Below, one piece after another: positions 1 through 21,456 of a stretch of DNA of 31,049 bases. Numbering within the stretch: position 1 is the stretch's first letter; every line of letters begins with the position of its first letter. Source of the stretch: Abditibacteriota bacterium (GTDB lineage: Bacteria > Armatimonadota > UBA5829); the NCBI GenBank assembly GCA_017958015.1, contig JAGDDM010000181.1, forward strand, positions 1 through 31,049, given 5' to 3'. The position numbers and the translations under genes were made by a program. The notes below the pieces were generated by a model that saw only the letters and a program-made list of their open reading frames with translations, was not told the DNA's origin and made no database searches.

Positions 1-177
1 GTGGACGTATTCTACAAAGTGCAATACAATTACAACGACGACTTGGTATGCGGCACCTACTATACCAAGAGCGTCATAGACATTCACATGGGCATGAGAT
101 TGTTCGATTCCCAGACACTCAAACCTTATCCGGTCAACCTCAATACCAGCGTGAAAGTAAGGAACGCGATAAGATAA
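1..177 (+). CDS. 3' end of an upstream gene, truncated by the window edge; by context probably a minor pilin/pilus accessory protein
   Basis: Frame 1 is open from base 1 (VDVFYKVQYNYNDDLVCGTYYTKSVIDIHMGMRLFDSQTLKPYPVNLNTSVKVRNAIR) to TAA 175-177. The stop overlaps the next ATG (TAATG), which implies translational coupling. Not in the ORF track. The product is inferred from position only. Confidence 0.7.
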   Translation: MDVFYKVQYNYNDDLVCGTYYTKSVIDIHMGMRLFDSQTLKPYPVNLNTSVKVRNAIR

Positions 178-2342
178 TGAAGAGCTACGAAAGACGCGAC
201 AGACGAGGCGGTCAGACTCTGATCATCTCCATAATGATTATGTTTATCTTGGCTATTATCGCCACTTTGTTCGTGGCGATAGTGGCGCGGAACCTTATTC
301 AGTCCGGCAGATCGGCCCAGTCCGACGCTGTGGCGCAGATTGCCGCCGCCGGTATCAACTACGCCGACCGGATGCTCACCTCCAGCGAGGACGGCGCCGA
401 CTGGCGTCCCGTTCCGGACAACCTCGGCTGCAGCGATGGCGGAAACTTCTACGATGGCGTCGAGCCGGTGCCGGAAAACGGTTGGCAGGATATGCGGGCG
501 GATTACCCGGACTTCAAATGGCTCAGACCCTACTGGCCGGAAGAGTTGGGCGAACTTGACGACGAGGGAATAGGCTACGCCGGACCCACGGGCGGTTTCA
601 CCTGCTTCAACGCCGGCAGGGGCAGATATCTCCTCCGGGTAAGCTACAACCCCAACATGAGCGACCCCCTGTCCAAGTATATCAAGATTGAGTCCATCGG
701 CCGCTGGGGCATCTTCGATCCCGAGGACCCCACAACCTATAAAGACACCACCGACTACAAGATGAAGCGTGAGCTGACGGCCTACAAGCCCATCGGCATC
801 ACCGACTACGTCCGGTTTGTCACCAACAAGAACAATAAGCCCATGGCGGCGTCTCTGGGTGTTCCCAATTTCGCCACCGATTACGGCAGAAGCAATAATT
901 CCCGCTACGGTCTCCGGGGCGCTCCCATCAGAGTGAACGGCGACCTGAAGTGGTACGGCAATTACACGGGCAACGGCGTGAACGTGTACCTCAGAGGTCT
1001 CGAAAGCGACGACGGCGGCGATCCTCTTCCTCTCGACAGAGTTGAGGTCTCCGGCGAGATAAGCGCCGACGCGGACACCTCCGGCAACAACAAAGTTCCG
1101 GTCACAATCAACACGATTGTGGGCAACAGAACCCGGGCCGTGGCCGCCGCCGACAGTGACACCGGCGATTTCACCACCGCCTCCGGTTTCTACAGAGACG
1201 GCGATTCCGGCACCGACGCTTACAGATACGCCAGAGGCGTAAAGCGCATTGAGCCCCCGAGCATAACGAAGAAGGACCTCACCAACACCTCCACCCGGTA
1301 CAGAATGCTCACCCTGAGTTCCGGCGAGTACGTCAACGTGGGCGGCAAGAACGTCAACCTGGGCAGATACGGATGGGGCAGAGGCATCTACATCGACAAC
1401 GAAAAGGACGACCAGTCCGACTCCTTCAGTCTTTACGGCCGCTACACCGTCCGCGAGGACTGGCTCAACCCCAACAACAATATGACCAAGAGCGCCTGGC
1501 TGGGTCCCTACTACATTCCGCCGGCAGTCATCATCACCCTGGTTCCCGACGATTCCGAGGTGATTAACGTGGGCGGCAAGAACATCACCCAGTACTATTT
1601 CTACATCACCAAGGACACCTCCGACGGCAGCGTGTGGCACGACGCCGCCGGCAACGAGCGGCCCGACTGGGGCAAGACAATCAGAATGCCCTATCCGGAC
1701 CCCAAGCAGGGCAGAGTCCTTACCCGGGCCGTGGGCGCCAACGGAAACGTGCGCATCGACGGCAACGGCGTCATCTACGCCGAGGGCAACGTGAGAGTTC
1801 GGGGTATGCTTCCTCCCGGAATGAACCTCACCATCGTCTCCGGCAAGACCATCTACATCGACGGCAACATTCTGAAGTACCGCGAGGACAACCCCACGGC
1901 CAACGATCCTTACAGAGGCGCGGATCCCACCTGCGGCATCGCTCTTCTGGCCAAGGACAACATCTGCGTGAACACCACCCAGTTCCTGTCCCCGGACAAC
2001 ATCACCGTGGACGAGATCGATTCCTCCGCCGGCGACGCCACCTCACCGGTGCTGGTGCTCAACCAGAATTCGAGATTTATTTCCAAGTTCGAGTTCGGTC
2101 CCTACGAGTCCGAAAACGGCAGAGACAACAAAACCGCAACCTCATGCTCCGCCACGCGGGGCAGGGCGGCGCCTCCTACATCAACGGCTTCATCAACAGA
2201 GAGGCCATCGAGTGGAACACCAAGGTCAGCGACATGTATCCCCTCATTTGGGGCGTGGGCGACCCCAGATTTGACGGCGTTTACGGCTACGGCAGCGATT
2301 CCGCCATGCTGGGACAGGTGTTCGACATCACCGACGACATAA
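177..2342 (+). CDS. Large PilX/GspK-like minor pilin, N-terminal part (reading authentic to about 2132; the last ~70 codons appear to be out-of-frame run-on)
   Basis: ATG 177 is coupled to the upstream stop. The N-terminus is a class III-like leader: basic MKSYERRDRRGG, then hydrophobic QTLIISIMIMFILAIIATLFVAIVA with no Glu5, as in the PilX/GspK type, then ARNL...AAQIAAAGINYA. Later beta-rich motifs GNGVIYAEGNVRVRG, LTIVSGKTIYIDGNI and IALLAKDNICVN. Sequence turns Ser/Thr/Pro junk after ...ENGRDNK. Confidence 0.7.
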   Translation: MKSYERRDRRGGQTLIISIMIMFILAIIATLFVAIVARNLIQSGRSAQSDAVAQIAAAGINYADRMLTSSEDGADWRPVPDNLGCSDGGNFYDGVEPVPENGWQDMRADYPDFKWLRPYWPEELGELDDEGIGYAGPTGGFTCFNAGRGRYLLRVSYNPNMSDPLSKYIKIESIGRWGIFDPEDPTTYKDTTDYKMKRELTAYKPIGITDYVRFVTNKNNKPMAASLGVPNFATDYGRSNNSRYGLRGAPIRVNGDLKWYGNYTGNGVNVYLRGLESDDGGDPLPLDRVEVSGEISADADTSGNNKVPVTINTIVGNRTRAVAAADSDTGDFTTASGFYRDGDSGTDAYRYARGVKRIEPPSITKKDLTNTSTRYRMLTLSSGEYVNVGGKNVNLGRYGWGRGIYIDNEKDDQSDSFSLYGRYTVREDWLNPNNNMTKSAWLGPYYIPPAVIITLVPDDSEVINVGGKNITQYYFYITKDTSDGSVWHDAAGNERPDWGKTIRMPYPDPKQGRVLTRAVGANGNVRIDGNGVIYAEGNVRVRGMLPPGMNLTIVSGKTIYIDGNILKYREDNPTANDPYRGADPTCGIALLAKDNICVNTTQFLSPDNITVDEIDSSAGDATSPVLVLNQNSRFISKFEFGPYESENGRDNKTATSCSATRGRAAPPTSTASSTERPSSGTPRSATCIPSFGAWATPDLTAFTATAAIPPCWDRCSTSPTT

Positions 2343-2902
2343 AGGCCAACCTCTACGAGCTTGTGGGCAAGACCAACACCTTCGAGATAGCTCTGGACAA
2401 GGTCTACACCAGAGAGAACTACGTTTTGAGCTCCGCCGCCATCGTGCCCAACGATGTGCGAATCGAGGCGATTATGTACGCCCAGGACGGCAGTTTCTTC
2501 GTCATTCCGGGCAGATGGTTCAACAACGACAGCTCCGACATTCCCGGAAGAGACAGACCCGCCGGCACCGACGACATGTTCCCCTACTACGGCGAGCCTC
2601 TGGACATCAAGATTACAATCGACGGCGCCGTGGCCGAAAACGCCACCGCCTCCATCGGCGACGTGACCCAGTGGTCCGAAAAGTGGTGCGGAATCCCGAG
2701 TCACTACGGCTCCAGCAGCACCACAACGGCCCACGCCGGCGACGGCATCACGTTCCTCTACGACGACCACGCGGGTTGGCCTCTTGAGGACCTGAACGAC
2801 CCCACCAGCGCGGTGAGATTTGACTACTACGGCAGAGTTCTGCCCCTGGCTCCGAAGCTCCCGGTTTGCGGCAGCCTGATATATTCCGGCGACATAATGT
2901 AG
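2132..2902 (+). CDS. C-terminal part of the same PilX-like protein, in the -1 frame (joined product 177-2902, about 908 aa)
   Basis: From about 2132 this frame has the same C-ending codon style and a plausible sequence (NRNLMLRHAGQGGASYINGFINR...LPLAPKLPVCGSLIYSGDIM*). Adding one A to AAAA at 2130-2133 gives continuous GRDNKNRNLMLRH. TAG 2900-2902 is followed by the RBS of the next gene. Confidence 0.7.
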   Translation, partial: NRNLMLRHAGQGGASYINGFINREAIEWNTKVSDMYPLIWGVGDPRFDGVYGYGSDSAMLGQVFDITDDIKANLYELVGKTNTFEIALDKVYTRENYVLSSAAIVPNDVRIEAIMYAQDGSFFVIPGRWFNNDSSDIPGRDRPAGTDDMFPYYGEPLDIKITIDGAVAENATASIGDVTQWSEKWCGIPSHYGSSSTTTAHAGDGITFLYDDHAGWPLEDLNDPTSAVRFDYYGRVLPLAPKLPVCGSLIYSGDIM

Positions 2903-2913
2903 CGGAGGTAATT

Positions 2914-5900
2914 ATGAGAAATCGTATTTTGACCCTTTTGATTTCGGCGGTTATGATTTCGTCGATAGCTTTATCGGCGGCGGACGCCGGCGCGTTCAGC
3001 TACTCCACGAAGCGCCGGAGAATCAACTGCGCCGTCATTATGATCCCCGGCGTGAACGGTTCCGAGATGGCCAATCATCAACTGAGCGGTCTCGTGGCCC
3101 CCAGCTACAACATCGACACCGGCAAGCTTCTTTCCGACCCGGGCACCGCCCACATTTTCTGGAAGCTGGACAATGACAGCCTCCTGAAACCCGCGGGCTG
3201 GTCTCTTCAGAACCCCCTGTCCAACATAACCGTGGCCACGGACTACGGCAAGTTCAACGACAGATACTGGGTGCTGAACCTTGACAGCATCACCGACCTC
3301 ACGGGTCTGGACGTGGCCTATCTGCCCCTGAGCGGCTATGTGAAGCTCACGGACATGGAGCGGGAAAAACTGAGAAGATTCGTTGACACCGGCGGCGTCC
3401 TTTGGATTGACTTCGCCGGCGGCAGTATGCTGGATTTCGACAACACTTTCTTCATCAGAGATATGACGACGGTTCGGGCCGGCGGCACCTCCATGTATCC
3501 CGCCGGAAACAGATACCATCCGATTCTCTCCAGCCCCAATTGGCTTGACGAGAGAGAGATTCCCTACATCGGTTGGAACGCGGGAAGCTATTCCTGCAAC
3601 CCGGGCTTCGACATCAAGAACATGGGAGCCCTCAGAGAGGGTAATTTCAACTTCGATTCCCTCCTTCCCATCACCGTGAACTCCGCCGACGGCAGAGCCT
3701 CCATTGCCGGCAACACCTACGGCAGCGGCAAGGTGGTTATGACCGCCGACTTTGTGGGTATGGGCATCATAAAGAAAAACGACTTTTTCTCCGCCATAGA
3801 CATGAAGCTGGGCTACAACATTCTGGCATGGTCCTCCTCCTGGACCGAGTTCAGAAAGGGCGCCCGCAGAACCGCCTCCGGCATCGACAGCGTGGGCGGC
3901 GGCAAACTTGTGGAAACATGGACTCTCCCGGCTCCCGCGTTGAGCCGCAGCGAAGTCTCTCCGGTTGTCTACAAGGGCGTTGCTTTCTACACCGCCGACA
4001 ACGGTCTTTACGCCGTTGATTTGCTGCCCAACAGAGACCTTGACGGCGACGGCGACGTTGACGACGGCGTCAAAGACAGCACCCTGGGCATGGAAAACAA
4101 GGGCCAGGACGTAATTTGGTACCTTCAATCTCCGCCCGGTATAAAAATTTCCGCTCCCACTGTGGTTTCAATGCTCAATGTGAGTACTTTTAATGGCGGA
4201 ACCGGAAATCCGGTCATTGACGCTGTTCTGATTACCATGAACGTCAACGGCAGTACTCTTCTGCGAGGTTTATTCGCTTTCCCCACCGACGGCAACGGTC
4301 ATTTAGCCGGAAATTACGAACAGATACCTTATATTCAGGATGCGCCCTTGTTTACGAGCGGCGGTTCGGAGGATTTTGCTCCCAGAGCGCCCATTTACCA
4401 AAACGGCTGGATATACTATGTCAGCTCAGAAGGTAAGCTCAATGCCTTTAACCCCGTGATTGTCGCGGCTGCGGGTTATAGCGATTATGCCAAATACAGC
4501 GTTCCCTTCACGTCCATAGGTTCAACTTACCTTGGCGCGGTCAAGAGCGCTCCTTTCTTCGGCTACGTGAAGAACGAGACCACCGGCGCCACCTTGGGTA
4601 TGGTATATTGGGTCACTCCCGATTTGAAGCCCTCCGGCGTTCAGAGAGACACGGACAACGACTGTATCTACGGCATTCCGGTTTCCGTGGCGGGTGATAA
4701 GCTGAAAGTTACTCAGAGAGAGACAAACACCTGGTATCTGGAGACATCTTACAAGACCGCTTTCATAAGCGAAAATCCGGCCATATCCATTTGGTTCAGA
4801 GACAGAGACGGCGACCCCCACAGCATCGACGATTACTGCACCGTGGATATCAACGAGCCCATTTCCGGAACTCAGCCTCAGCCCGGCAGAATCAAACTTA
4901 CCTTCAAGAGCGGTATGGCCGATAAGATTGATTACGACGCCACAATCTACGCTTCCTATTCCATGTATTACAGGGATAAGCAGGGTCAAGGCGGTATTGT
5001 CTACATGTCTTCGCCCACCCGCACCGTTCTCACTCCTTCCTCTTCCACGGGAGAGCATGAGAGCACCAGAGTTCCCAAGACCGAGGTTGTGGGCACTCCT
5101 TCCATGGGTCCGGACAACACCATTTACATCTCCGGCCACAGATCCGACGGTTACGCCAACTCCGTCTACGCCGTAAAGAATATGGGCACCGGCGAGCAGA
5201 TTACCCGCTGGAACTACATGATTCACAACGGTGTTTCCGCCGGTGACGCCAACGGCGTGGAACTTCCTCCGGTGATTATCCACAAGGACACCGAAACGGG
5301 CAACGTCTACCGCATGGAGAACCCGCAACTTACATCCTCCCCGACTTACGCCGGCGGTAAGGTATTCGTAACCGTCAGCGGCGACACCAACGGCAACGCT
5401 CCCAGAGGCGCGCTCCTCTGCCTGAACGCCAACCACAACTTCACAATCAGAGTCACCAAAAACGCGGGTACCCACCTCGGCGGCAGCAATGCCAGCCAGG
5501 GCGCCAGCTTTATTGACGAGACCACCGGCAGACATAAACAGGTCCGCATTTGGCAGCCCAACATTTTGGAGAACCGCAACACTCCCGGACAGCAGCTCCA
5601 GCCCGCTCAGGCGGCGGTGGGCGTGCCCAGCGACATGATTGACTACAACAACGGTATCATAACGATTACCAACTTCGAGCGGATTAAGCTTCGGGGCACC
5701 ATGAGCGCCAACGGCAGACTCACCCCGTCGTTGCCGGTTCACATCTTCATTGACAACGTGGAAGTGCCGGTGGACTACTCCACCTGGGCGCCCACGGTTG
5801 CGGCGGAGACATACGGCTACGGCGGTTACGCCGGTCAGAAGAGCTCCGCCCACAGCTCCGACTGCGTGGATCTCAGCGGTTGGAACAATTTGCTTTGGTA

Positions 5901-7485
5901 CTACGTCATACCGGATAGCACCATATCCTCCCCGCCGGTTGTGATAGGCAACACGGTTTACGTCATGGCTGACAACGGCGATATGTACGCCCTGAACGCC
6001 GAGACCGGCGAATCCAACGCCACCGAGACCACCAACAAGCCCGTGTGGCAGTGGAACTCCGGTTCAACGTCCGGCTCCGGCGATCAGTACATGCTTTCCC
6101 CGGCGGCCTCCGACGGCGTTCTCTTGGTTCCCACCAAGAACGGCCTCACGGCCTTCGGCAATTCCTACACCCTGGTTGCCGACGACACCAGAGTGGCGGA
6201 GATCGACGGCGGCGGCGATTTGGCTTGGATGGCGGACACCGTGCGTGTTCCCGCCACGATTCCCGCCTCCAAATCCGACAGCACCTCCACAGTTGACCTC
6301 AATATCACCGGCGCCAACATGGCCAAGTATCTCGAGGGCAACGATATGCTCCTGGTTTGCACCGGCGGCAACTACGTTTGCAGAATCGACAAGTCCGCGG
6401 AAGTTTCCATGCTTTCCGCTCCCGACTCCAAGAGTAACAACGTAACCCGCTACATCCGCTGGTTCTACGACAAGTTCACCGATCCCAAGAACCTGCTGGC
6501 ATCCGGCGGCGACACGGCTCTGCGGCATCCCACGGACGCTCAGATTTGGTCCGAGACGGAAACAGCCGGCGGCAAGCAGAGAATCGTTGTTCACTGCCTC
6601 ATTGCCGACAGCGGCAACTACAGAATAGTTGACCTTGTGTACAGATTCGACACGAGCGGCAACATCATCACAAGCGGCGAGTATTCCGTGGATCCCTCCA
6701 CCGGCTTCGTGCTTCCGGAGCTCAACTGGGTCACCAAGACCGACGCCACGGATCAGAAGTTCACCTTCAACAGCGTGCAGCTGGGCGAGGACAACACTTC
6801 CGTTTGGGCCGCGGCTTCCAACTACCGCACCGGCACCGATACGGACATTACCGGCAATTACAGCGTCACGGATCCCATGTACAATTCCGCCCTTGGCGGC
6901 GCCATCGTGGCGGTTAAGTACAGAGAGGGAACAAACGGCGCTTGGAACTACAACGCCAAGGGCTGCGGCGAGATTTTCGCCAGATGCGACGCTCTCGTTT
7001 GGAGCGGCAACAAAGAAACGCCCATTCTGAACCCGCGATTCTTTAAGGTTGTGAACAAGACCGACGGCACCCACCTTCTGGTCTGCGACAACAACGGCAT
7101 ACATTACACCGCGGCTCTTGCCGGCGGAACTTCTCTCCGGGTAACGGATTCTCTCACCGACGAGAGATACCGCTCCATGTACAGAGAGATTATCGACGAG
7201 AAAACCGGCGTGGCGTCGGACACCACTCTGACGCTGGGTATTCCTCTCCGGGCCTCCTGCGTTGAGCTTTTGCCCAACGGCAACTGGCTGGTGACAAACG
7301 GCTACGTGGGCGTCGCCCCCGACGGCGGCAACTTCTCCGGCGAGGTTTTCGAGTATGACCCGGAAAGTAAAAAGATTGTCTGGACGACGCCGGAGCTTAT
7401 GTGCCCCGACAACACGCCCGAAGATTGGTATCAGGCGACGGGCGGAACGAAACTGAACCACCCGCGGTCCGCACTCAGGAGATAA
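2914..7485 (+). CDS. Giant secreted protein (about 1523 aa): signal peptide, DUF4159-like domain, PQQ-type beta-propeller repeats, C-terminal NHL-like propeller; PilY1-like pilus accessory/adhesin candidate
   Basis: RBS GGAGG 2904-2908 and ATG 2914 (track start 2866 is too early). Signal peptide MRNRILTLLISAVMISSIALSAADA. DUF4159-like motif LTDMEREKLRRFVDTGGVLWIDF. PQQ-family motifs WTEFRKGARRT, SPVVYKGVAFY, SSPTYAGGKVFV and SSPPVVIGNTVYVMADNGDMYALNAETG. NHL-like motifs LRHPTDAQ, LIADSGNYRIV, ELLPNGNWLVTNG and LNHPRSA. Ca-loop DLDGDGDVDDG. Confidence 0.75.
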   Translation: MRNRILTLLISAVMISSIALSAADAGAFSYSTKRRRINCAVIMIPGVNGSEMANHQLSGLVAPSYNIDTGKLLSDPGTAHIFWKLDNDSLLKPAGWSLQNPLSNITVATDYGKFNDRYWVLNLDSITDLTGLDVAYLPLSGYVKLTDMEREKLRRFVDTGGVLWIDFAGGSMLDFDNTFFIRDMTTVRAGGTSMYPAGNRYHPILSSPNWLDEREIPYIGWNAGSYSCNPGFDIKNMGALREGNFNFDSLLPITVNSADGRASIAGNTYGSGKVVMTADFVGMGIIKKNDFFSAIDMKLGYNILAWSSSWTEFRKGARRTASGIDSVGGGKLVETWTLPAPALSRSEVSPVVYKGVAFYTADNGLYAVDLLPNRDLDGDGDVDDGVKDSTLGMENKGQDVIWYLQSPPGIKISAPTVVSMLNVSTFNGGTGNPVIDAVLITMNVNGSTLLRGLFAFPTDGNGHLAGNYEQIPYIQDAPLFTSGGSEDFAPRAPIYQNGWIYYVSSEGKLNAFNPVIVAAAGYSDYAKYSVPFTSIGSTYLGAVKSAPFFGYVKNETTGATLGMVYWVTPDLKPSGVQRDTDNDCIYGIPVSVAGDKLKVTQRETNTWYLETSYKTAFISENPAISIWFRDRDGDPHSIDDYCTVDINEPISGTQPQPGRIKLTFKSGMADKIDYDATIYASYSMYYRDKQGQGGIVYMSSPTRTVLTPSSSTGEHESTRVPKTEVVGTPSMGPDNTIYISGHRSDGYANSVYAVKNMGTGEQITRWNYMIHNGVSAGDANGVELPPVIIHKDTETGNVYRMENPQLTSSPTYAGGKVFVTVSGDTNGNAPRGALLCLNANHNFTIRVTKNAGTHLGGSNASQGASFIDETTGRHKQVRIWQPNILENRNTPGQQLQPAQAAVGVPSDMIDYNNGIITITNFERIKLRGTMSANGRLTPSLPVHIFIDNVEVPVDYSTWAPTVAAETYGYGGYAGQKSSAHSSDCVDLSGWNNLLWYYVIPDSTISSPPVVIGNTVYVMADNGDMYALNAETGESNATETTNKPVWQWNSGSTSGSGDQYMLSPAASDGVLLVPTKNGLTAFGNSYTLVADDTRVAEIDGGGDLAWMADTVRVPATIPASKSDSTSTVDLNITGANMAKYLEGNDMLLVCTGGNYVCRIDKSAEVSMLSAPDSKSNNVTRYIRWFYDKFTDPKNLLASGGDTALRHPTDAQIWSETETAGGKQRIVVHCLIADSGNYRIVDLVYRFDTSGNIITSGEYSVDPSTGFVLPELNWVTKTDATDQKFTFNSVQLGEDNTSVWAAASNYRTGTDTDITGNYSVTDPMYNSALGGAIVAVKYREGTNGAWNYNAKGCGEIFARCDALVWSGNKETPILNPRFFKVVNKTDGTHLLVCDNNGIHYTAALAGGTSLRVTDSLTDERYRSMYREIIDEKTGVASDTTLTLGIPLRASCVELLPNGNWLVTNGYVGVAPDGGNFSGEVFEYDPESKKIVWTTPELMCPDNTPEDWYQATGGTKLNHPRSALRR

Positions 7486-7489
7486 TGAA

Positions 7490-10400
7490 ATGGCAGTAAA
7501 ATCGAAAAAAACCCTTTACACGGCAATAAGCGTGTTGGCCCTCGCGGGGCTTATCGTCTCCGGCGCTTTTACCGATACCTTCTGGCAGTCCTATTGTTTC
7601 GACCGGTTCCACACCGGCCAGAACAACGACGCCAACCATATCAAAAATCCCGAGACTTTGGACCTTGTGTGGGTGTTTCCCCGGGACGTGAGCACCAAGA
7701 GCTCCCAGGTGGTGGATAACGTGAACGGACGCGCCACCGGCAGCTGGACCGTCAGGGACAGCGAAGGCGCCTACATAAGCGACGAGGACGCCGAGGCCCA
7801 GGAAGCGGAAGGAATCGAAAATCCCATCGGCAACTTCAGCTACACCGCGGCCTTGCCCAGCGACAGTACCAATCCCGACAAGCCCTTCACCTGGACTTTC
7901 AGCGTCACCGCCGACATGCTGGCCAACACCCACTTCTATAAGATTCAGGTTTGGATTCCCGCTCTCACCGAGGAAGAACAGCTGGATTTGGGTTACACTT
8001 TTTCCCAAAACGCGGTCTACACCGTGAGAGACGACTACGGCGAAAAAACCTATTCTTTCAATCAGCGTGACACCGGCGGTTGGCAGGAGCTTACCTACGA
8101 AGCTCTCCGCATAACGAGACCGGGCGCGTACAAAGTGACTCTTTCCGCCATTACCGGCGATAACTTCAATCCCGAGGCCGACAGCGGCGAATCCCCCTCC
8201 ATAGCGGTTGCCGCCGACGCGGTTCGCCTCGTTCCCGTCACCGGCATGGAGGTTTATTCTTCTCCCGCCAGCGGCTCCATTCCCTGGTCCACCACCGTCA
8301 CCTACGGTTTGGGCGACGGGGAGGGCAACGCTCAGCAGACGGAAACATACAGCACGGACGCTTTGCCGGTTGTCTGTGTGGGCACCGTTGAGCCGCCCTT
8401 CGGCAACGGCATGGCCTCCATCAACTCCGGCGCGATTTACTGCGTCAACAGCGTAACTCCCATCAACCAGACCGCCGCGAGCAGCTCCAAGAAAGGCTTC
8501 TTCGACGCTCTCTCGGAAAATCTGGGCACATATATATGGCGTTATCCCGCGGCTAACCCCGACGACAGAGACGAACTTGACGGTCCCGTTATGAACGGCG
8601 TCTATTCCTCTCCTCTCGTTGACACCAGCCACCCCGGCAGCCCGGTTGTGTACGTATCCGCTCAGGACGGCCAGATTTACTGTTTGGACGCCGTAACGGG
8701 CGAGCGGATTTGGTCCGGCCCCGGCATCACCATGGGCGAAAACTCCGCCTCCACCAACTACGAAGGCACCTGGGAAACCGTCAGCGGCGTTGACGAGTGC
8801 TTCGGCGGATCTTATAAGTGGGCCGCCGGTACCACGGAAAACGACAACGTGGCTTCCGTAACCTGGAACTTCGCGGAAAAACTGGACACGAGCATGGTGA
8901 GACAGCCCGGCGACGCCGGCGTCGCCTATGAGGTCTACGTGTGGATTCCCAGCAATAACGGCACCGGCGTGACCCAGTCCGCCAACTATACCGTCACCTA
9001 TCAGGACGCCCAGGGCAATCCCGCCACCGACAACGTGAAGCTGGATATGAGCACCTACAACTTCTCCGGTAAATGGCAGCAGTTGGGCGGCTCCTATTTC
9101 AACGTTCAGAGCGTAAAACTCACCAACAAAACATCCGACGGCGGCAAGGTTTTCGCCGACGCGGTTAAGATTGTTCCCGCCGAGTGCGGCGTCTTCGGAT
9201 ATTCCTCTCCCATTACCGATGTAAGGGACGACGGCACCGGTGTTTCCACCAAGGTATTTGCCTGCACGGCCTCCGGCAGAGTCATCTGCATGTCCGCCAA
9301 CGCGGCTGAAGAGGGCATCGGCAAAACGGAATGGGCCTGCCCCAAACTGAGAACGAAAGCCGTCATCGAGGAAGAGGATGACTACACCGAACGGGGCTTC
9401 GGCTCCGTGGGCGGCAGTTTGGCCTACACCTCCAACGGCAACTACATCATCGGCAGCGCCATACAGGTGGGCGCGTATGAGGATGTCAGCCTCTTCTGTA
9501 TCGACACCGAGGGCAACCTCAAGTGGAAAGTGGGCGGCGACTACGGATTTACATCATCGCCCACCATCGGCGCCGACGGCAACATCTATATCGGCGACAT
9601 CGGCGGTTATTACAGGTGCTTCAGAATGGCGGACGGCAGTGAACTGTGGTCCAACCCCGGCACATCGGGTTATGCCGAAGGTCTCAGCCCCATTCCTCTG
9701 GGCGCTTTCAGATATTCCACCAGCGCTTTCGGCATCGCCAAGTCCCCCGCTTACAGCGGCGGAGATTTCCGCACGTGGATAGGCTCTTCCGACGGCAAGA
9801 TTTATTCCTTCAAGATAAATGAGGGCCTCTCCGAGCACAGAATGTACACGGAATACAACGACGAGGGCGAACAGAAATCGGTTCACAACGCTCCCCCGAG
9901 ATACGTCGAACCCAACTTCTATTCCGCCATCGAGGGTTCCGTGGCCGTGACGGGTCTCAATCCCGGAAACGTCACTACCATGTACGTGGGCGACATGAAC
10001 GGCGTTCTCCAATGGAGAAACGCCGCCCACGGCACATCTTCCGATACGGTTGATGTTATAAACAATGTGGGCAAGTGGAAATACGACGGCTATCAGACCG
10101 ACGGATTCCTCTTCTCCTCCCCGAACCTTACCACCGTTACCGCCGATATGGCGGCGGCCAATGTGGACTGGGTCTACATCGGCGGCTCCGACGGCAGAGT
10201 CTACGCCTTCTCCGACGAGGAGGGCGCCTGGGGCGGACACTGGCACGGCGGCCAGTGGCCCTTCGACGGCGAGCCCGGCGACAGAAAAGTTTCCTCCCGC
10301 TCCGCGGTGGAGACGGACATTCAGTTCGACATATTCAGCAAAGACTTTGCCCGGGCTTCCGAGTACGGCGACCCGGATCCTCATACAAATGACTGCTATC

Positions 10401-14740: not shown

Positions 14741-14891
14741 TTGTGAAAAGCGAGCTCTGAGCTCAAGGTTCCGATAGAGTCGGCTTTTCGCCGCGGATTC
14801 TATGCTCTCCTCCAAGATTCGGATTTTCCGGACGAGCACCCGGAGCGGCACCTCCGACCTCTACTGGCAGACTCTCAGCCCTCGGTTCTGA
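14652..14891 (+). repeat. Diverged direct repeat: 14652-14740 (gene 3' end including stop) repeated at 14803-14891
   Basis: Ungapped manual alignment of 89 nt shows 10 mismatches. Copy 2 reads in frame from ATG 14802 as MLSSKIRIFRTSTRSGTSDLYWQTLSPRF*, against LLSSKIWIFWTSTRSGTSDLYWQTLSPRF* in the gene. Confidence 0.95.
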
Positions 14892-14976: not shown

Positions 14977-15031
14977 AGGGGCATTTTCACGAAATTTTCC
15001 GAAAAAAAGCCGATTTTTTTTCGAAAAGGGC

Positions 15032-15070: not shown

Positions 15071-15129
15071 ATATTGTGTGGCAAGAAATGTGTCGCATTT
15101 CACTAAAAGTGTGAATAGGATATCTGATT

Positions 15130-16551
15130 ATGGCTTCCAAAAAAATACCTTCCGCGGTTCTCGGTCTTGACATAGGCACCACCGCGATTAAAGCCGTTGA
15201 AGTCAAGTACATCAAAGGCAAGCCCGTTGTTACCGGAATCGTTTCGGCGGATTTGCCCGAGGGCACTTTTGACAGCGAGCTCATCGTAAACCCCGAGGAG
15301 CTGGGCAAGACGGTTAAGGAGCTTTTGGCATCCAACAACATAAAGACGAAAAACGTTGTGTGCGCTCTTTCGGGTCAGACAAAGGTTATCGTGCGCGTCG
15401 TGGAAGTTCCCAAGATGACGAAGAAGGAGCTGGACGACACCATGAAGTTCCAGGTGGAATCCAACGTTCCTTTCCCCGCCAACGAGATTGTGAAGGATTA
15501 CGAGATAATCGAAAATCCCGACGCGGACGTGAACGATCCCAACTACGATGTCCTCTTCGCCGCCGCGCAGCAGGACCTTGTTAACTCCTACATGGCCATG
15601 CTCAAGTTCGCCGGTCTCAAGATTGCCGCTCTGGACGTGAACACTCTCGCCGTGGGCAGAGCCGTTCTCGAATCGGAAAAGAACGAAGAGGGCAAAACCG
15701 GCATTATCGGCGTTGTGGACCTGGGCGCCTCTTTCAGCAGCTTCGGCGTCTTCGAAAACGGCGACCTTAAATATCCCAATCCTCCTCTTTCCGTGGGCGG
15801 CAACAGCCTCACCGCGGAAGTGGCTCAGATTTTGGGCGTGGAGAAGGACGAGGCGGAGGAATCCAAGAAGCAGTACGGCTACGCCGACGCGGAAGTTTTC
15901 AATATGCTCCTGGGCATCGCTCAGGAAGCGGAGAACGAGGAAGAGGACTTCGACTTCAACGACGCTTTCTCCACCTTCGAGGAACAGACTCAGGCCGTGT
16001 CGGAAGCCCATGACGACGAGTTCGGCGACTTGCCGGGTCTCGGCGGAGGTCTGGGCGACATTCTGGGCGGTTCCGTGGATGTTGCGGAATCCGAAGAAGA
16101 AGCCGCTCCCGCGGTGGACAATCCTCTGGATTTGGACGCCGGCGAGACCGAGGCGGAGCCTCTCTTTGATTTGGGCGACAAGCCCTTCGGCAACGACAAC
16201 GATACGCCCTTTGCCACCGACGATATAGATCCCAATTCCCTTCAGGGCAAAGTGCTTACGGCCATTGCCACTCCTCTTATCGATTTGGCCAACGAAATAA
16301 GACGCTCTCTTGAGTATTACAATACCCGCTACAACAAAGACATCGACAAGCTGGTCCTCTGCGGAGGCGGCGCCAATCTCGGCAAGATTGCCGATTTCCT
16401 GGTGGGTGAGCTGGGTGTGGAAACCGAAGTGGTGAAGCCCATGGCGGGTTTTGCCGTTGAGATTCCCGACCTTACCGAGCAGTACATAAACGAGATTTCA
16501 CCTTCCCTTACCGCCGCCTTGGGGCTCGCGGTTCGCGATATGGTTGAATAA
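15130..16551 (+). CDS. pilM: Type IV pilus assembly protein PilM (actin-like fold) with a large acidic insertion
   Basis: VLGLDIGTTAIKAVE phosphate-1 motif, VIVRVVEVPKM, FQVESNVPFP, VLFAAA, LVLCGGGANL and C-terminal AALGLAVR; first gene of an MNOP-secretin order. Confidence 0.93.
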   Translation: MASKKIPSAVLGLDIGTTAIKAVEVKYIKGKPVVTGIVSADLPEGTFDSELIVNPEELGKTVKELLASNNIKTKNVVCALSGQTKVIVRVVEVPKMTKKELDDTMKFQVESNVPFPANEIVKDYEIIENPDADVNDPNYDVLFAAAQQDLVNSYMAMLKFAGLKIAALDVNTLAVGRAVLESEKNEEGKTGIIGVVDLGASFSSFGVFENGDLKYPNPPLSVGGNSLTAEVAQILGVEKDEAEESKKQYGYADAEVFNMLLGIAQEAENEEEDFDFNDAFSTFEEQTQAVSEAHDDEFGDLPGLGGGLGDILGGSVDVAESEEEAAPAVDNPLDLDAGETEAEPLFDLGDKPFGNDNDTPFATDDIDPNSLQGKVLTAIATPLIDLANEIRRSLEYYNTRYNKDIDKLVLCGGGANLGKIADFLVGELGVETEVVKPMAGFAVEIPDLTEQYINEISPSLTAALGLAVRDMVE

Positions 16552-16571
16552 ATCCGGAGTAGTAAACAGCA

Positions 16572-17432
16572 ATGATAAAACTTAACCTGTTGCCTAAAGT
16601 CGTGGACGAGAAAAAGGATATCCGCAACATGATTATTCTTTTCTCCGTTCTGCTTCTCGCTGTTCTCGCCGGCTGTTTTGCCTATATCCACCAGCTGGAC
16701 GTGAACATTGCCGATATGAAGGCGAAAGAAGCCGAAGCTCGTATGCGCAAGGAAAACGTGGACAGAATCAAGGCCGAGGCCGAAAGCTGGGAAGGCAAGA
16801 TTCCGCCCGTCAAGGCTAAGGTTGACTTCTTCGACAGCGTTATGGCCTACACCGACGCCTATCCCAAACTCTACGAGGAAATCGCCCGCTGGACCTACAA
16901 CAGAGTTCAGTACAACGCCATCTCCACGCCGGCTCCGGACGCGGTGGTTATGGCCGCCAAGGCGAAGAATCTGGACGATGTGGGCAGATATCTGCTGAAT
17001 ATGTATAAAGCCACGAACCTCTTTACCGAGGTTACCATAAGCGGCGTTCCCGGATACGGCCAGATGGAAGGCGGCGACGTGGGATTCGACTTCGGCGCGC
17101 TCAACGAGCAGGCTGCGGCCGAATCGACTCCGCCCCCGGCTTCCGGCGGTATGACCCAGGAACAGCTGGCCGCCAGCTTCCCGGGCAGAGACGTATCCGG
17201 CGTAACCAACGTGGGAACCGGCGGAGCGGCCGCTCCCGCCCCCGCGGCGCCCGCCCAGTCCTATCAGGCTCCCAGCCTCGCGGGACTCGGCGCCATCGAT
17301 ACCGGTGTGCTCAGAGCCCCCGGTGCCGGCGTACCCAAAGAAATCAATTTTACGGTTAATTGCAAGCTCAAAGAGCCCATCAATGTTCCCACACCTCCGG
17401 GAACACAGAACCCCGATGAGCAGCCGATGTAA
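16572..17432 (+). CDS. pilN: PilN-like assembly protein
   Basis: N-terminal MIKLNLLP (PilM-binding INLLP motif), one TM helix, coiled coil, ferredoxin-like C-terminal region ending INFTVNCKL; directly after pilM. Confidence 0.85.
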   Translation: MIKLNLLPKVVDEKKDIRNMIILFSVLLLAVLAGCFAYIHQLDVNIADMKAKEAEARMRKENVDRIKAEAESWEGKIPPVKAKVDFFDSVMAYTDAYPKLYEEIARWTYNRVQYNAISTPAPDAVVMAAKAKNLDDVGRYLLNMYKATNLFTEVTISGVPGYGQMEGGDVGFDFGALNEQAAAESTPPPASGGMTQEQLAASFPGRDVSGVTNVGTGGAAAPAPAAPAQSYQAPSLAGLGAIDTGVLRAPGAGVPKEINFTVNCKLKEPINVPTPPGTQNPDEQPM

Positions 17433-17459
17433 AGGCAAGTGAAATAAAAAGGATTTGCG

Positions 17460-18131
17460 ATGAAACTCAAAAAATGGCATGTGGCGGCGATTGGTTCCTT
17501 CCTTTGTATAGCCGCGGCCGGAGCTCTCTATTGGTTTATGATGAAGCCCCGCCAGGAAGAGTTGGCGGCGGTTACCGCCAGCTACGAGCAGCTTGACAAC
17601 GAAGGCAGTGAGTCCAACAGACAGGCCGCCGAAAGACGGCTTCTGAAGGCTCAGAACGACCTGAACAACAACACCCACAAGCTTGACGTTTACATGAACA
17701 AATATATGCCGAACCTTCAGTTCGAAAAGCGGGACAAGGGTATGATCGCTCTGTGGAACGAGCAGATTTACAACCTGGTTCCCACGGTTGAGCGGTTCTC
17801 CAGAGACCCCAACCCCAACGTGAAGGTTATCACCGGTACCTTTACGGCTCCGCCTCCGCCGGCGAACCCCAACGATCCGCTCTTCTCTCAGGAATGGATA
17901 AGATACGACATGGGTCCCTATGCCGTGAGGGGCGATTTCAAGGCTTTGATGAAGAACATCAGACGCTGGAAAGACTGCAACAGACTCATCGTTATTTCTC
18001 CTCCCATTTTGGCGGGAACTTCTCCCAACTTGGTGTCGAGTTACAACCTCACCTGCTATGTCGCGCCCAGATCCGTGGGCGGCGCGCCGCTTCCCATGGC
18101 GGGAAACGTAGGCGGAGACCAGCCGCAGTAA
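17460..18131 (+). CDS. pilO: PilO-like assembly protein
   Basis: N-terminal TM helix (VAAIGSFLCIAAAGALYWFMM) followed by KPRQEE, coiled coil, then VRGDFKALMKNIRRWKDCNRLIVI resembling PilO G.F..L..F...l....R; position after pilN. Confidence 0.7.
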   Translation: MKLKKWHVAAIGSFLCIAAAGALYWFMMKPRQEELAAVTASYEQLDNEGSESNRQAAERRLLKAQNDLNNNTHKLDVYMNKYMPNLQFEKRDKGMIALWNEQIYNLVPTVERFSRDPNPNVKVITGTFTAPPPPANPNDPLFSQEWIRYDMGPYAVRGDFKALMKNIRRWKDCNRLIVISPPILAGTSPNLVSSYNLTCYVAPRSVGGAPLPMAGNVGGDQPQ

Positions 18132-18140
18132 GGAGCAATT

Positions 18141-18917
18141 ATGGATTGGCTTAACGACAAGAAAAATCAACCTATAATAATCGGCGTAGTCGTGGCTCTT
18201 CTCTTGGGCGTGGGCGCGTTCTACTACTTCATGCTCAGTCCCAAAGACGAGGGCGACATGGGCGGCGAAGAATACGTGGCCGAGGAGACCATGGAGAATC
18301 CCGACGAGGGAATGACGGAAGAACAGCCCGCCGAGCAGCCGGCTCAGCCCGCGGCGAACAACAATCAGGTTGCGGCAGCTCCCGGCGAGCCCTCGAGAGA
18401 CGATCCGTTCCTGCCCATAGGCTACAAGCCTCCCAAGGCCCAGAAGAAGATTAAGCTTCCCGAGCGGCTTACGGACTTCCCCTTCGCTCCCATTCCCAAC
18501 AGATACGTTCCGGGAAAGGAAAAGGCGGAAAAGGCCATCAAGACTCCCGAGCCTCAGCAGCCGGTTCGCAGAATGGCGGGTCTTATGATTAACGACAGAG
18601 TTTTCGCCATTATCGAGACAAACGGGGAATCCCAGATTGTGCAGCCCGGCGACATGCTGAAGGACAGGCTGGCCACAGTGGAACGGATTGAGTCCGACAG
18701 GGTTATTCTGAAGACCACCTCCAAGAACCCGAGACTCATCACCGTGAGAATGGCGGCGGCGCCGCAGTCGGAAACGGAAGATTTCTACGACGCGGCCAAC
18801 AACGCTTCTTCTTCCTCCGGCAACTCCGGCGGCGCGGCAAACAACAGACTCCTCCGCAACTCCGGAATCAATATGAACGCCCCGGGCATGGCGGGATCCT
18901 TCCCGGGAAGAATGTAA
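18141..18917 (+). CDS. PilP/GspC-like assembly protein (TM anchor, RDDPF motif, beta-sandwich)
   Basis: RBS AGGAG. TM helix IIIGVVVALLLGVGAFYYFML, RDDPFLP (PilP RDPF-like motif), RMAGLMINDRVFAIIETNGESQIVQPGDML (PilP/GspC HR-like); position after pilO. Confidence 0.65.
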   Translation: MDWLNDKKNQPIIIGVVVALLLGVGAFYYFMLSPKDEGDMGGEEYVAEETMENPDEGMTEEQPAEQPAQPAANNNQVAAAPGEPSRDDPFLPIGYKPPKAQKKIKLPERLTDFPFAPIPNRYVPGKEKAEKAIKTPEPQQPVRRMAGLMINDRVFAIIETNGESQIVQPGDMLKDRLATVERIESDRVILKTTSKNPRLITVRMAAAPQSETEDFYDAANNASSSSGNSGGAANNRLLRNSGINMNAPGMAGSFPGRM

Positions 18918-18964
18918 TCACTTTATCGACTATTATACTACCATCACTTTTAGGGGGTAATACA

Positions 18965-19648
18965 ATGTTTAACGGAAAACGATGCTTCTCGCTTATTATG
19001 GCGGCCTGCGTTATGGGCGCGGCGGCCTGCGGAGCGGTTTACGCTCAGGCGGCAAAGACCACCGACGACACTCCGGTGACGCTGGATCTCAAGGACGTTG
19101 ACGTCAGAGCGGCCATCGAGTCTCTTTTCAGGGGCACCGGCAAGAACTTCTCCATCGGCCAGGATGTCAGCGGTAAGATTCCCAGCCTTTCTTTCCGCTC
19201 CATTCCTTTCAGCCAGGCTCTGAAGAACCTGCTGAAGACCGCCGGTCTGGTTTACCGTGTGGAAAACGGCATCTACATGATAAGTAAGAAGCCGGACACC
19301 TCCGCTACGGCCTACGCCACTCCGGATGTCACCGCTGCGGTTGCGGGCGTTGAGGAAACCGCCACCGAGGAGAAAATCATCGACAAAATCCCTCTCAATC
19401 ACATGGGCGCCACGGAGCTTTTGTCCATCATGAACAAGGACAGCCACGACTACGGCGACTATGATCCCTTCGATGCTTTCGGCTCCCTCATGGGTAACAG
19501 CAGCGGCAGCAGAGGCGGCGGCAGCTACGGCGGCGGCAGCAGAGGCGGCGGCTACGGCGGAAGCAGCAGAGGCGGAAGTTACGGCGGAAGCAGCAGAGGC
19601 AGTTACGGCAGCAGCCGGAGCAGCGGCAGAAGCAGCAGAAGTTGGTAA
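18965..19648 (+). CDS. Stand-alone STN (secretin/TonB N0) domain protein with Gly/Ser/Arg/Tyr repeat tail
   Basis: Signal peptide, then VTLDLKDVDVRAAIESLFRGTGKNFSIGQDVSGKIPSLSFRSIPFSQALKNLLKTAGLVYRVENGIYMISK (N0 pattern), then IDKIPLNHMGATELLSIM (start of a secretin N-domain), then a low-complexity tail. Confidence 0.8.
   Translation: MFNGKRCFSLIMAACVMGAAACGAVYAQAAKTTDDTPVTLDLKDVDVRAAIESLFRGTGKNFSIGQDVSGKIPSLSFRSIPFSQALKNLLKTAGLVYRVENGIYMISKKPDTSATAYATPDVTAAVAGVEETATEEKIIDKIPLNHMGATELLSIMNKDSHDYGDYDPFDAFGSLMGNSSGSRGGGSYGGGSRGGGYGGSSRGGSYGGSSRGSYGSSRSSGRSSRSW
19508..19612 (+). repeat. Four imperfect tandem coding repeats, SRG(G)(G/S)YG(G)(G/S)
   Basis: Units 19508-19537, 19538-19564, 19565-19591 and 19592-19612, each starting AGCAGAGGC and containing TACGGC. 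Confidence 0.9.
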
Positions 19649-19704
19649 AGAGAAAGAATACAATGTTTGGTGAAACAACTATGTTAAACTGCAGGAGGAA
19701 ACCT

Positions 19705-21456
19705 ATGCATATGGCACTCAAGGATTGGTGTAATTCACGCTTTACCGCTAAGAGTGTATTGGGCGGCGCGGTTATAACCGCCGTTCTCGCGGCCGGTCTT
19801 GTGAGCGGCGCGATGGCGGCCGGCGATAACGTTGTGCTTCAGATTCAGGACCGCCCCCTCAAGGAAGTTGTGATGCTTCTGAGTAAGCAGAGCGGCATCA
19901 ACATCATTCTGGCGGATGAAGCGAGCCTTCAGAAGAAGGTTACCGTATCCCTTAAGGATGTTTCTTTGGACACGGCTCTCGATTACGTGGTTAAGGCCGC
20001 GGGCATTACCTACTCCAAGATGGAGGACGGAACAATCATCATCGGCGGCGCCGACTCCGCGGAGCCCGTCTTTTCCGCCGACGAATTGGACGCCATAATC
20101 CCGGGCGCCGAGCCGGTTTACACCCCTGACTTCGGGGTTTCCGAGCCCATCACCACAAGCAAGATTGCTCTCACCCACTCCAAGCCCAGCGAGATTTTGA
20201 GACTCCTCGGCTGGAACGGCGAGAATCCCACCACCAACGCCGATGTTCGGCTTCCCGAGAGACTTCGCAAGCCTCAGACCGAGAGACAGCATCCTCAGAC
20301 CGGCGCCAAGGTGATAAGCGGCGGCAACGTTGTTAGCGAAGGTACCATGAACGCCCAGCCCGTTATCCCCACCATGGACCCCAGAGCCATGGATATGGGT
20401 AGCGGCAGAACCGCCGACATCTCCGCCGGCGCGGGCCAGATGGCTCCTCCTCCCGGTTACGCCAGACCCGGCGGCACCGGCACCTACGGCACTCCCGGCC
20501 AGCCCTATACCGGCGGCGCCTATTTGGGTCCCGGCGCGGCGGGCGCGACCAACAGAAACAACGCCAACAACGCCGGCAGCAACGCTTCCGGCACGGGCAG
20601 CGACAAGGAACAGTTCCTCTGGCCGGACGGCATCGACAACGCCATTCCTTTCGACCTTGACAACTCCATCATCGTCAAGGGCACCGAGAAGGGTATCGCC
20701 GAGTTCAAGAACATCATCAGAATGCTGGACATTCCTCCCAAGCAGGTTCTTATCAAGGCGGAGTTCGTTGAGGTCAGCACCCAGGACGTTAAGAGTTTCG
20801 GTATCGACTGGTCCCTTAACAGACTGAACGAGTCCTTCAGCACCGGTTTCAACCCCACCGGCAACGTTACCGTGGGCGTGACCAGCGGCAACCTTACGGC
20901 GGCCCTGAAAGCCGAGCTGACTCAGACCGTGGGCAGAACCATCAACTCCCCGATTGTTTCCACCATCAACAACCAGTACGCTTACATATCCATCAACAAC
21001 ATCATACCGTTCTTCACCAGTTCCACCTACGTGTCCGACGGTACCGCCATCAGCAACAGTGTTGTTGACTACATCGAAGTGGATACTTACCTGGAGATCC
21101 TCCCCAGAGTTAACGGCGACGGCAGTATCACCATGATGCTCCAGCCCAGAATCTCCGACGTGGGCAACTACGTTGTGGGTCCCGACGGAACCTCCGTTCC
21201 GGAAGAGAAGTATCAGGAACTCTACACCCAGCGGCGCGTTGCCAACGGTGAGACCATGGTTGTGGGCGGCTTCATCAGAAAGACCGATGCCAACAGCTAC
21301 AAGAAGATTCCGCTTCTTGCCGATCTTCCCCTCATCGGCCGCATCTTCAAGACTTACTCCAAGTCCTCCGAAGAGAGAGAATTGCTGATTTTCGTCACCC
21401 CGACGATTATCCCCGATTCCACCTACGGTACCGTGGGTTCCGGCATAGTTCCCTAA
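19705..21456 (+). CDS. pilQ: Outer-membrane secretin (PilQ/GspD family)
   Basis: RBS AGGAGG 19693-19698 favours ATG 19705 (in-frame alternatives at 19663, 19681 and 19711). N0 domain, N-domain ending DNSIIVKGTEKGIAEFKNIIRMLD, secretin core PPKQVLIKAEFVEV...SPIVSTINNQ...ILPRVNGDGSI...GETMVVGG...KIPLLADLPLIGRIFK...RELLIFVTPTII. PilQ versus GspD cannot be settled from sequence alone; pilMNOP context favours PilQ. Confidence 0.88.
   Translation: MHMALKDWCNSRFTAKSVLGGAVITAVLAAGLVSGAMAAGDNVVLQIQDRPLKEVVMLLSKQSGINIILADEASLQKKVTVSLKDVSLDTALDYVVKAAGITYSKMEDGTIIIGGADSAEPVFSADELDAIIPGAEPVYTPDFGVSEPITTSKIALTHSKPSEILRLLGWNGENPTTNADVRLPERLRKPQTERQHPQTGAKVISGGNVVSEGTMNAQPVIPTMDPRAMDMGSGRTADISAGAGQMAPPPGYARPGGTGTYGTPGQPYTGGAYLGPGAAGATNRNNANNAGSNASGTGSDKEQFLWPDGIDNAIPFDLDNSIIVKGTEKGIAEFKNIIRMLDIPPKQVLIKAEFVEVSTQDVKSFGIDWSLNRLNESFSTGFNPTGNVTVGVTSGNLTAALKAELTQTVGRTINSPIVSTINNQYAYISINNIIPFFTSSTYVSDGTAISNSVVDYIEVDTYLEILPRVNGDGSITMMLQPRISDVGNYVVGPDGTSVPEEKYQELYTQRRVANGETMVVGGFIRKTDANSYKKIPLLADLPLIGRIFKTYSKSSEERELLIFVTPTIIPDSTYGTVGSGIVP

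Follow-up and report, generated by a model that had tools for sequence, protein, structure and literature searches.

What do three very large genes do in the type IV pilus locus of a ruminant-gut bacterium? Detailed knowledge of type IV pilus tips is limited to a few Proteobacteria, Thermus, and cyanobacteria, and recent work has them closed by either PilY1-type adhesins or a solenoid-bearing cap pilin. We analyzed a stretch of 31,049 nucleotides (hereafter the window), which is contig C146 (JAGDDM010000181.1) taken from its beginning, so that its left edge is the contig end. The host is an Armatimonadota metagenome-assembled genome (MAG) from the ruminant gut (Abditibacteriota bacterium, GCA_017958015.1; 2.09 Mb, 299 contigs, 97% complete). 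Three genes of the window, here called g1, g2, and g3, encode an oversized pilin and two giant exported propeller proteins, and are followed by pilMNOP and a secretin gene. An earlier note, made from the sequence alone, had proposed them as the tip module or the secreted cargo of a perhaps undescribed filament subtype. We find that the locus is an uncharacterized, scaled-up variant of a known design rather than a novel type of filament. In Armatimonadota, a cap pilin with a solenoid appears to be joined by two exported propeller proteins of much greater size. Most of the phylum retains this arrangement, in soil and hot-spring lineages as well as in this reduced rumen genome.

A conserved triad beside the pilus genes

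We compared the window with related genomes. In a member of the same family (G004) and in members of two other families of the class (G039 and G035), the genes run pilB-T-C-D, three pilins, g1, g2, g3, pilMNOP, STN, secretin, aroB, kinase, rpe, and ribD. The first, second, and third pilins of these genomes measure 250–290, 540–640, and 570–625 residues. Across 38 loci of the Armatimonadota, among them loci of Chthonomonadia, Capsulimonadaceae, and Armatimonadales, the order is kept up to g2 or g3. We then surveyed an even sample of 151 Armatimonadota genomes. A g1 profile matched 149 of them, and a g3 profile built from the C-terminal alignment matched 98, always in open frames of ~2000–3800 residues. 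Read together, the two profile tables place g1 and g3 at most ~15 kb apart on the same contig in about 75 genomes of the 98. The suggestion that the layout is lineage-wide thus proved correct for the Armatimonadota.

Within the window, g1 and g2 are separated by 11 nt and g2 and g3 by 4 nt, so the three genes form a coupled run. The next gene, pilM, is adjacent but not coupled: a spacer of 389 nt precedes it, and a scan of this spacer for promoters and terminators found none on the + strand. The gene run of the earlier note was therefore right in most respects (all genes present, on the + strand, with the right sizes, and g1-g2-g3 coupled), except that pilM stands 389 nt off and that g1 reaches 908 residues only when read through a frameshift. 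The spacing of g2 and g3 differs among relatives: in G004 the two genes lie ~1.5 kb apart, with a 409-residue open reading frame (ORF) on the opposite strand between them (L018 17698–18927), and several other relatives resemble G004, as judged by spacing.

Breaks in the cluster were informative. In three genomes (G015, G009, and G011) the break falls between g2 and g3: g1-g2 stays with pilBTCD and the pilins, g3 stays with pilM, and the two parts lie 0.7–2.2 Mb apart. In two others (G060 and G134) it falls between g3 and pilM, where g3 stays with g1-g2 and unrelated genes follow it. One further genome (G163) carries two full pilins-g1-g2-g3 cassettes with 65–80% amino acid identity (L072+L084 on contig 1, L082+L083 on contig 4). 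The duplicated unit is pilins plus g1-g2-g3, and the paired cassettes resemble the multiple (three) minor-pilin/PilY1 sets of Myxococcus xanthus (PMC7541494). In none of the relatives examined were g1, g2, or g3 away from pilus genes, even after cluster breaks. The earlier note had tied its reading to a lasting link between the large genes and pilMNOP/secretin. Taken literally, that link is lost where g1-g2 has moved 0.7–2.2 Mb away, but the displaced genes still sit beside pilBTCD and pilins. Synteny and a linkage that survives rearrangements uphold the claim that g1, g2, and g3 are part of a type IV pilus locus. Thus, g1-g2-g3 is a conserved triad beside pilus genes across most of the phylum. 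g2 and g3 diverge fast: their identity within the class is 24–42% versus 64–80% for PilB, PilT, and PilC.

g1 is a predicted cap pilin of the ComZ/GspK kind

As deposited, the g1 sequence falls into two frames that overlap (3..2342 and 1634..2902), and the switch between them falls at ~2129–2135, in the run aacaaaacc. The frameshift is a one-base deletion in the A-run at 2129/2130 (site 2129–2133). The g1 orthologs of G004, G039, and G035 are single unbroken ORFs of 852–942 residues, and g1 read through the frameshift aligns with unbroken orthologs end to end. Logan contigs from two independent studies (runs X1 and X6) carry one extra A after 2129 at full depth, which restores the 908-residue frame. 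Because of these contigs, the break is an assembly error or a strain variant and not a trait of the family; an error in the assembly of the MAG is likely.

The ortholog alignment of the g1 N-terminus shows an invariant Gly12-Gln13 followed by T-L-I-I/A and a hydrophobic stretch, with Glu5 absent. This is the prepilin-type N-terminus lacking Glu5 by which ComZ/PilX cap pilins are recognized. An AlphaFold2 model of g1 (predicted local distance difference test [pLDDT] 84, predicted template modeling score [pTM] 0.87) begins with a 57-residue helix at residues 13–69, after which beta structure follows. We compared this predicted model with solved structures in an exhaustive VIA-align search. The top match was ComZ of Thermus thermophilus (6qvi_A; Z 12.7, 329 residues aligned, model 44–908). 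Ice-binding beta-solenoids followed with Z about 11 (10.7–11.5), residues 604–758 matched CBM36/35-type jelly rolls with Z about 8 (CBM, carbohydrate-binding module), and GspK (3ci0_K) matched model residues 41–908 with Z 7.2. The ComZ and GspK alignments both extend to the last residue of g1.

Other searches gave little. Foldseek with the g1 model found no match in the PDB at E ≤ 0.001, phmmer against PDB sequences found no match for g1 or g2, and Pfam and NCBIfam assigned no family to g1 or 25 orthologs, the PilX_N and HpsA-type models included. Relatives of g1 in the AlphaFold database carry the label DUF4900. By its model, which places a solenoid before the last strand and resembles both ComZ and GspK as expected of cap pilins, we class g1 as a ComZ/GspK-type cap pilin, with a predicted pilin fold interrupted by an ice-binding-type beta-solenoid and a CBM-like jelly roll. 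The closing beta-strand of this fold would be supplied in cis, as in GspK and ComZ.

g2 lies in the place of PilY1

The place of g2 is PilY1-like: it has a type I signal peptide, and its gene directly follows that of the cap pilin in every locus examined. Its 1523 residues are counted from the Met that opens the signal peptide; the signal peptides of g2 and g3 were recognized by eye from their N-termini. Pfam returned PQQ_2 (3.6e-5) and DUF4159 (1.7e-4), both under cut-off, and the N-terminal 330 residues gave weak ThuA/DUF4159 signals only. The remainder (residues 335–1523) was modeled with AlphaFold2 at pLDDT 82. In VIA-align comparisons, model residues 1–750 matched a BamB/PQQ-type propeller with insertions (Z 17–18 with BamB), and model residues 748–1189, the C-terminal part, matched six-bladed propellers of the NHL/YWTD type (Z 20–22). 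ESM Atlas feature searches with g2 and with the C-terminal part of g3 yielded generic leads (PQQ, ThuA, and NHL; NPCBM_assoc 0.76).

The EF-hand-like calcium motif of PilY1 has the consensus Dx[DN]xDGxxD (PMC8833165). g2 matches it exactly with DLDGDGDVD at residues 375–383, and 12 of 24 orthologs carry the motif at the same aligned place; it sits in the first propeller, not in the C-terminal one. At its extreme C-terminus, g2 ends in Q-P-x-x-A-x-R plus two or three residues, conserved across the phylum. Since complete six-bladed propellers align to the last residue of g2, this motif is probably the closing strand of the modeled propeller. When G004 g1 (residues 20–931) was modeled in complex with the C-terminal 85 residues of its g2 partner from G004, the score was 0.00, which, without controls, is evidence neither way.

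g3 is a second and larger exported protein

g3 matched Golvesin_C (1.6e-11) and PQQ_2 (1.3e-8) in Pfam. Within its first 900 residues, a PQQ-type propeller is interrupted by two beta-sandwich domains of the Golvesin_C type. The remaining ~1500 residues had no match in Pfam or PDB, and the end of the protein carries repeated W-rich blade-like motifs. Searched against the PDB as a single sequence or as a 25-sequence profile, g3 matched solely PQQ-type propellers (designer propellers and BamB). The middle and C-terminal part found ~150 matching clusters among 1.84 billion representatives, nearly all of them 2100–2850 residues long and with the match at the same relative position. The final blade-like motif is highly conserved; the residues beyond it are not. 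Two Dx[DN]xDGxxD motifs occur in the g3 of this genome, neither of them conserved.

An orphan second copy of the g3 tail follows the gene (Table 1), with 82% identity to g3 residues 2383–2416. It was not found after g3 in nine relatives, and a contig of run X5 jumps from 14683 to 14835, leaving a single copy of the tail. The orphan copy is thus a tandem duplication that varies between strains, a strain-level repeat polymorphism at the g3 tail, and it is probably without function. We considered a functional strand-donor peptide and rejected it: the copy is found in this genome only, is missing in the X5 contig, and derives from an extreme C-terminus that is unconserved.

The pilus machine is a conventional type IVa set

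Of a retractile type IVa pilus (T4aP) super-cluster, the window holds the right-hand part, amounting to the distal two thirds. Its + strand carries an uninterrupted series of genes, from a pilin tail at its left edge to riboflavin genes. In a tblastn search, the 625-residue pilin of G004, which has an N_methyl motif, matched the pilin tail with 53% identity over residues 568–625; the third-pilin counterparts in relatives are about 570–625 residues long. Another contig of the genome, C37, carries aroE, PilB, a PilT-type ATPase, PilC, and PilD; a pilin begins after them and is cut off by the contig end. The gap in the assembly between C37 and the window takes in the second pilin and most of the third.

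The C37 proteins are PilB (T2SSE plus MshEN, 606 residues), a PilT-like ATPase (T2SSE, 378 residues), PilC (T2SSF), PilD (Peptidase_A24), and an N_methyl pilin, and they share 45–76% identity with the G004 cluster. Size and family point to a role of the 378-residue ATPase in retraction. PilB, PilT, PilC, and PilD, as expected of a T4aP, are thus present on C37, and PilMNOP and the secretin are present in the window. PilM scored over the Pfam and NCBIfam cut-offs and the secretin over that of Pfam; the PilP match is weak. The genes in the pilN and pilO positions had no hidden Markov model match and are named from their position and their conservation in relatives, where the pilN-position gene has 31–44% identity to the gene in the same place. 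The acidic PilM reported earlier was confirmed: it has an isoelectric point of 4.1 and an acidic low-complexity insertion of about 110 residues. In other Armatimonadota the family model also matches PilM in two pieces, in ORFs of 505–546 residues, so the insertion is a phylum trait.

Taken together, these results show that the pilus machine is a conventional T4aP set. The idea of an undescribed type IV filament subtype was not sustained, because the machine parts, PilB, PilT, PilC, and PilD on C37 among them, are the normal ones.

Comparison with known tip systems

The closest likeness of g1 is to Thermus ComZ (PDB 6QVI; PMC6561018) and to cyanobacterial PilX: all are pilins without Glu5 whose fold is interrupted by a large beta-solenoid, of the ice-binding type in g1. 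In ComZ, a triangular solenoid is inserted into the pilin fold before the last strand (PMC6561018), and all cyanobacterial PilX proteins have a solenoid in the same place (PMC13759059). The gene of g1 also comes after the other minor pilins in the operon, as does comZ after PilA1-PilA3. We had been led to expect an oversized PilX without precedent, and this view had to be given up: the g1 model matches ComZ, and the HpsA-like (PilX-EPS) subfamily of cyanobacterial PilX exceeds 1280 residues (PMC13759059, PMC6561018). The oversized PilX is of a known kind and new only for Armatimonadota. Armatimonadota, Thermus, and cyanobacteria are alike in being diderm Terrabacteria without a recognizable PilY1, and the cyanobacterial study proposes that the solenoid replaces PilY1 (PMC13759059). 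Unlike the Thermus and cyanobacterial proteins, however, g1 has no sequence-family match and carries an extra CBM-like jelly roll, and the two minor pilins that precede it are themselves 540–640 residues long. The papers on the Thermus and cyanobacterial loci report no genes for giant secreted propeller proteins after the cap pilin (PMC6561018, PMC13759059).

The overall order (three pilins, a cap pilin, and a large Sec-exported propeller protein) is that of the FimU-PilV-PilW-PilX-PilY1 sets of Pseudomonas aeruginosa and M. xanthus and of Neisseria PilC (PMC7541494, PMC8833165, PMC13533445). g2 resembles PilY1 in its size, its C-terminal propeller, and its Dx[DN]xDGxxD loop. It differs in lacking a PF05567 match, in having a C-terminal propeller of the six-bladed NHL/YWTD type, and in carrying the calcium-type loop in the first propeller. 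With a peptide at its extreme C-terminus, PilY1/PilC completes the PilK/PilX pilin beta-sheet (PMC13533445), whereas the cap pilin g1 seems to supply its own closing strand. The second, larger protein g3 has no counterpart in these sets.

Two further systems share parts of the design. MshQ of the Vibrio cholerae MSHA pilus (mshD-O-P-Q) is a non-PilY1 protein of ~1200 residues encoded directly after PilI/J/K-type minor pilins, and has been proposed as a tip subunit from synteny and modeling (PMC13533445). g2 is likewise a large non-PilY1 protein in the PilY1 position, a likeness by position and description. MshQ is predicted to donate a C-terminal strand to a PilK homolog (PMC13533445), whereas g1 appears complete by itself. 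CpaL/TadG is an oversized pilin-like Tad tip protein in which a middle insertion of ~470 residues is followed by a C-terminal strand that returns in cis (PMC13533445, PMC12607857). It shares the design principle of g1, a big insertion and a strand returning to the pilin domain, but belongs to the Tad (T4c) filament class, has other inserted domains, and lacks companion giant propeller proteins.

What sets the locus apart from known systems is that a solenoid cap pilin is combined with two giant propeller proteins that are exported, and that every part is oversized. A search of the literature turned up no account of this locus in Armatimonadota.

Possible roles of g2 and g3

We infer a tip or adhesin role for g2 and g3, and we lean towards the view that they are tip adhesins or sensors on a conventional T4aP with a ComZ-type cap pilin. 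In such a pilus, the three large minor pilins and g1 would prime the pilus and come to lie at its tip, as is the case in Thermus and cyanobacteria. g2, from the PilY1 position, and g3 would be exported by Sec to the periplasm, join the priming complex, and leave the cell through the secretin, borne by the pilus as it grows. At the tip, the propellers, beta-sandwich domains, and calcium-loop motifs of the two proteins could then serve adhesion or surface sensing, probably on polysaccharide-rich surfaces. Attachment would probably not follow the PilY1 mode of C-terminal strand donation to the cap pilin; strand donation to g1 is unlikely because g1 seems to supply its own closing strand. MshQ, which stands in the place of PilY1 without being a PilY1 itself and is predicted to become part of the tip (PMC13533445), offers a precedent.

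Several points weigh against placing g2 and g3 at the tip. Neither protein is recognizably a relative of PilY1: the PilY1 model PF05567 found no match in the whole genome at E up to 1, and the top 50 structural matches of g2 were generic NHL/YWTD and BamB propellers and did not include PilY1 (PDB 3HX6). A closing strand in cis, as modeled for g1, suggests that the acceptor site used by PilY1 elsewhere would be filled (PMC13533445), and cyanobacteria and Thermus manage with a solenoid cap pilin alone (PMC13759059). The use of the g2 C-terminus as a free docking tail, which we also considered, is weakened by the propeller alignments that run to the last residue. The combined ~4800 residues, upstream pilins not counted, would need an elongated shape to pass the secretin. 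About a third of the sampled genomes with a g1-like gene yielded no member of the g3 family. Finally, DNA carry-over cannot be excluded as the source of the RNA-library contigs described below.

A bolder version of the tip assignment seems to us possible but doubtful. Here g2 and g3 would be a new class of tip proteins unrelated to PilY1, forming, with the three giant minor pilins, a tip organelle of ~6000 residues on a retractile pilus, attached in a mode other than C-terminal strand donation. If this were true, type IV pili would carry and pull cargo-sized adhesin complexes, and tip adhesins would have arisen independently in Terrabacteria. If g2 and g3 are on the tip, they would raise the known size limit for the load that a pilus takes through the secretin, would mean a second, independent origin of tip adhesins, and would make both proteins candidate determinants for holding plant fiber or other polysaccharide surfaces. 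If they are not on the tip, the set is still a useful marker of the pilus locus of the phylum.

g2 and g3 might instead be cargo, that is, exoproteins (enzymes or free adhesins) driven through the secretin by a pilus working as a piston, as in a type II secretion system (T2SS), or released at the surface. Both proteins have ordinary Sec signal peptides and no pilin-like N-terminus, their folds are enzyme-like (ThuA/DUF4159-like, PQQ-type propeller, and NHL-type as in lactonases, sulfotransferases), and the PilP-position protein has weak GspC matches. Yet no catalytic family exceeded its cut-off in g2 or g3, and PilT and a separate PilM indicate a T4aP rather than a T2SS. Secretion substrates, moreover, seldom stand in a fixed order by pseudopilins throughout a phylum or are duplicated with minor pilins as a cassette. 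We consider cargo unlikely.

The cluster breaks bear on another possibility, that one or both of g2 and g3 serve the machine as periplasmic or outer-membrane accessories, for example a secretin assembly or alignment factor replacing pilotin, TsaP, or FimV-type parts. g3 remains directly upstream of pilM in the split clusters of G015, G009, and G011, but it parts from pilM and stays with the pilins in G060 and G134, and the duplicated cassettes hold g2 and g3 with minor pilins, not with pilMNOPQ. Both proteins have propellers like those of BamB, an outer-membrane assembly factor, and no pilotin-type gene was seen among the locus ORFs scanned with Pfam. However, g2 and g3 are very large, lack a lipobox, and diverge fast compared with PilB, PilT, and PilC. 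An accessory role is, in our judgment, quite unlikely.

It is very unlikely that the system of this strain is decaying, with a real frameshift in g1 and a cap pilin pseudogene in a reduced 2.1-Mb gut genome. The deletion is present in the window sequence, and the genome stands at the small end of the phylum sample, in which most genomes have 2.1–9 Mb. But the contigs with the extra A come at full depth from two other studies, the site is an A-run, a typical spot for assembly or sequencing errors, the other genes of the locus are all unbroken, and both halves of g1 align to orthologs over their whole length without excess divergence. That g2 and g3 are large surface or periplasmic proteins unrelated to pili, kept as neighbors through operon inertia, is highly improbable: although neither has a recognizable pilus-related domain and the g3 family was not found in part of the sample, independent breakpoints on both sides of g3 always leave it by pilus genes, translational coupling is tight, and the cassette was duplicated as a unit.

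Other genes and minor observations

The features of the window are collected in Table 1.

Table 1. Annotated features of the window, with positions counted from its first nucleotide.
Feature	Position	Strand	Description	Basis or remark
Large minor pilin	1..174	+	Last 58 codons	PilW position; remainder in assembly gap
g1	177..2902	+	ComZ/PilX(GspK)-type cap pilin, 908 aa read through frameshift	AlphaFold2 model and structure search
g2	2914..7485	+	Sec-exported multi-propeller protein, 1523 aa	Pfam (weak), AlphaFold2 and VIA-align
g3	7490..14740	+	Sec-exported protein, 2416 aa with signal peptide	Pfam and PDB profile searches
Orphan g3-tail copy	14803..14891	+	Second copy of last 29 g3 codons	Copy of 14652-14740, ATG start
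pilM	15130..16551	+	PilM, 473 aa	PF11104 9.5e-50; TIGR01175 204.8 bits (cut-off 133)
pilN-position gene	16572..17432	+	286 aa, N-terminal membrane anchor	Named by position
pilO-position gene	17460..18131	+	223 aa	Conserved position in relatives
pilP/GspC-like gene	18141..18917	+	258 aa	Weak PF11356 T2SSC 3.6e-5, GspC_delta 1.6e-4; conserved position
N0/STN protein	18965..19648	+	227 aa	PF07660 4.3e-14; TIGR02515, N-terminal part, 4e-11
Secretin	19642..21456	+	PilQ type	PF00263 2.4e-37; STN 3e-9; TIGR02515 2e-53 (under NCBIfam cut-off)
aroB	21637..22728	+	Right border of pilus cluster, kept across class	PF01761, PF24621

The N0/STN protein has a Ser/Gly/Arg/Tyr-rich tail. Its gene lies directly before that of the secretin and overlaps the listed secretin start; the true start of the secretin is probably a Met codon downstream of the listed TTG. 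Relatives throughout the class keep the separate N0/STN protein, as does at least one further lineage (L073). A PASTA kinase gene, rpe, and riboflavin genes follow aroB.

Shikimate genes flank the pilus super-cluster, with aroE before pilB (L085, C37, 5605–6432) and aroB after the secretin. In G035, a chorismate synthase-like ORF, judged from its N-terminus alone, lies between the secretin gene and aroB. Linkage of pilQ to aro genes is known from Proteobacteria, and it seems to hold in this locus too.

Elsewhere in the genome, four contigs (C155, C168, C244, and C270) carry pilin-like genes resembling the first pilin of the cluster, and contig C77 carries a second PilT/PilB-like ATPase. Several studies of gut metagenomes (bovine, sheep, and others; runs X1–X20) contain DNA nearly identical to the window. 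Contigs from a bovine RNA library match parts of g1, g3, pilM, pilN, and pilP/STN at 90–95% identity, and it is possible that these genes are transcribed.

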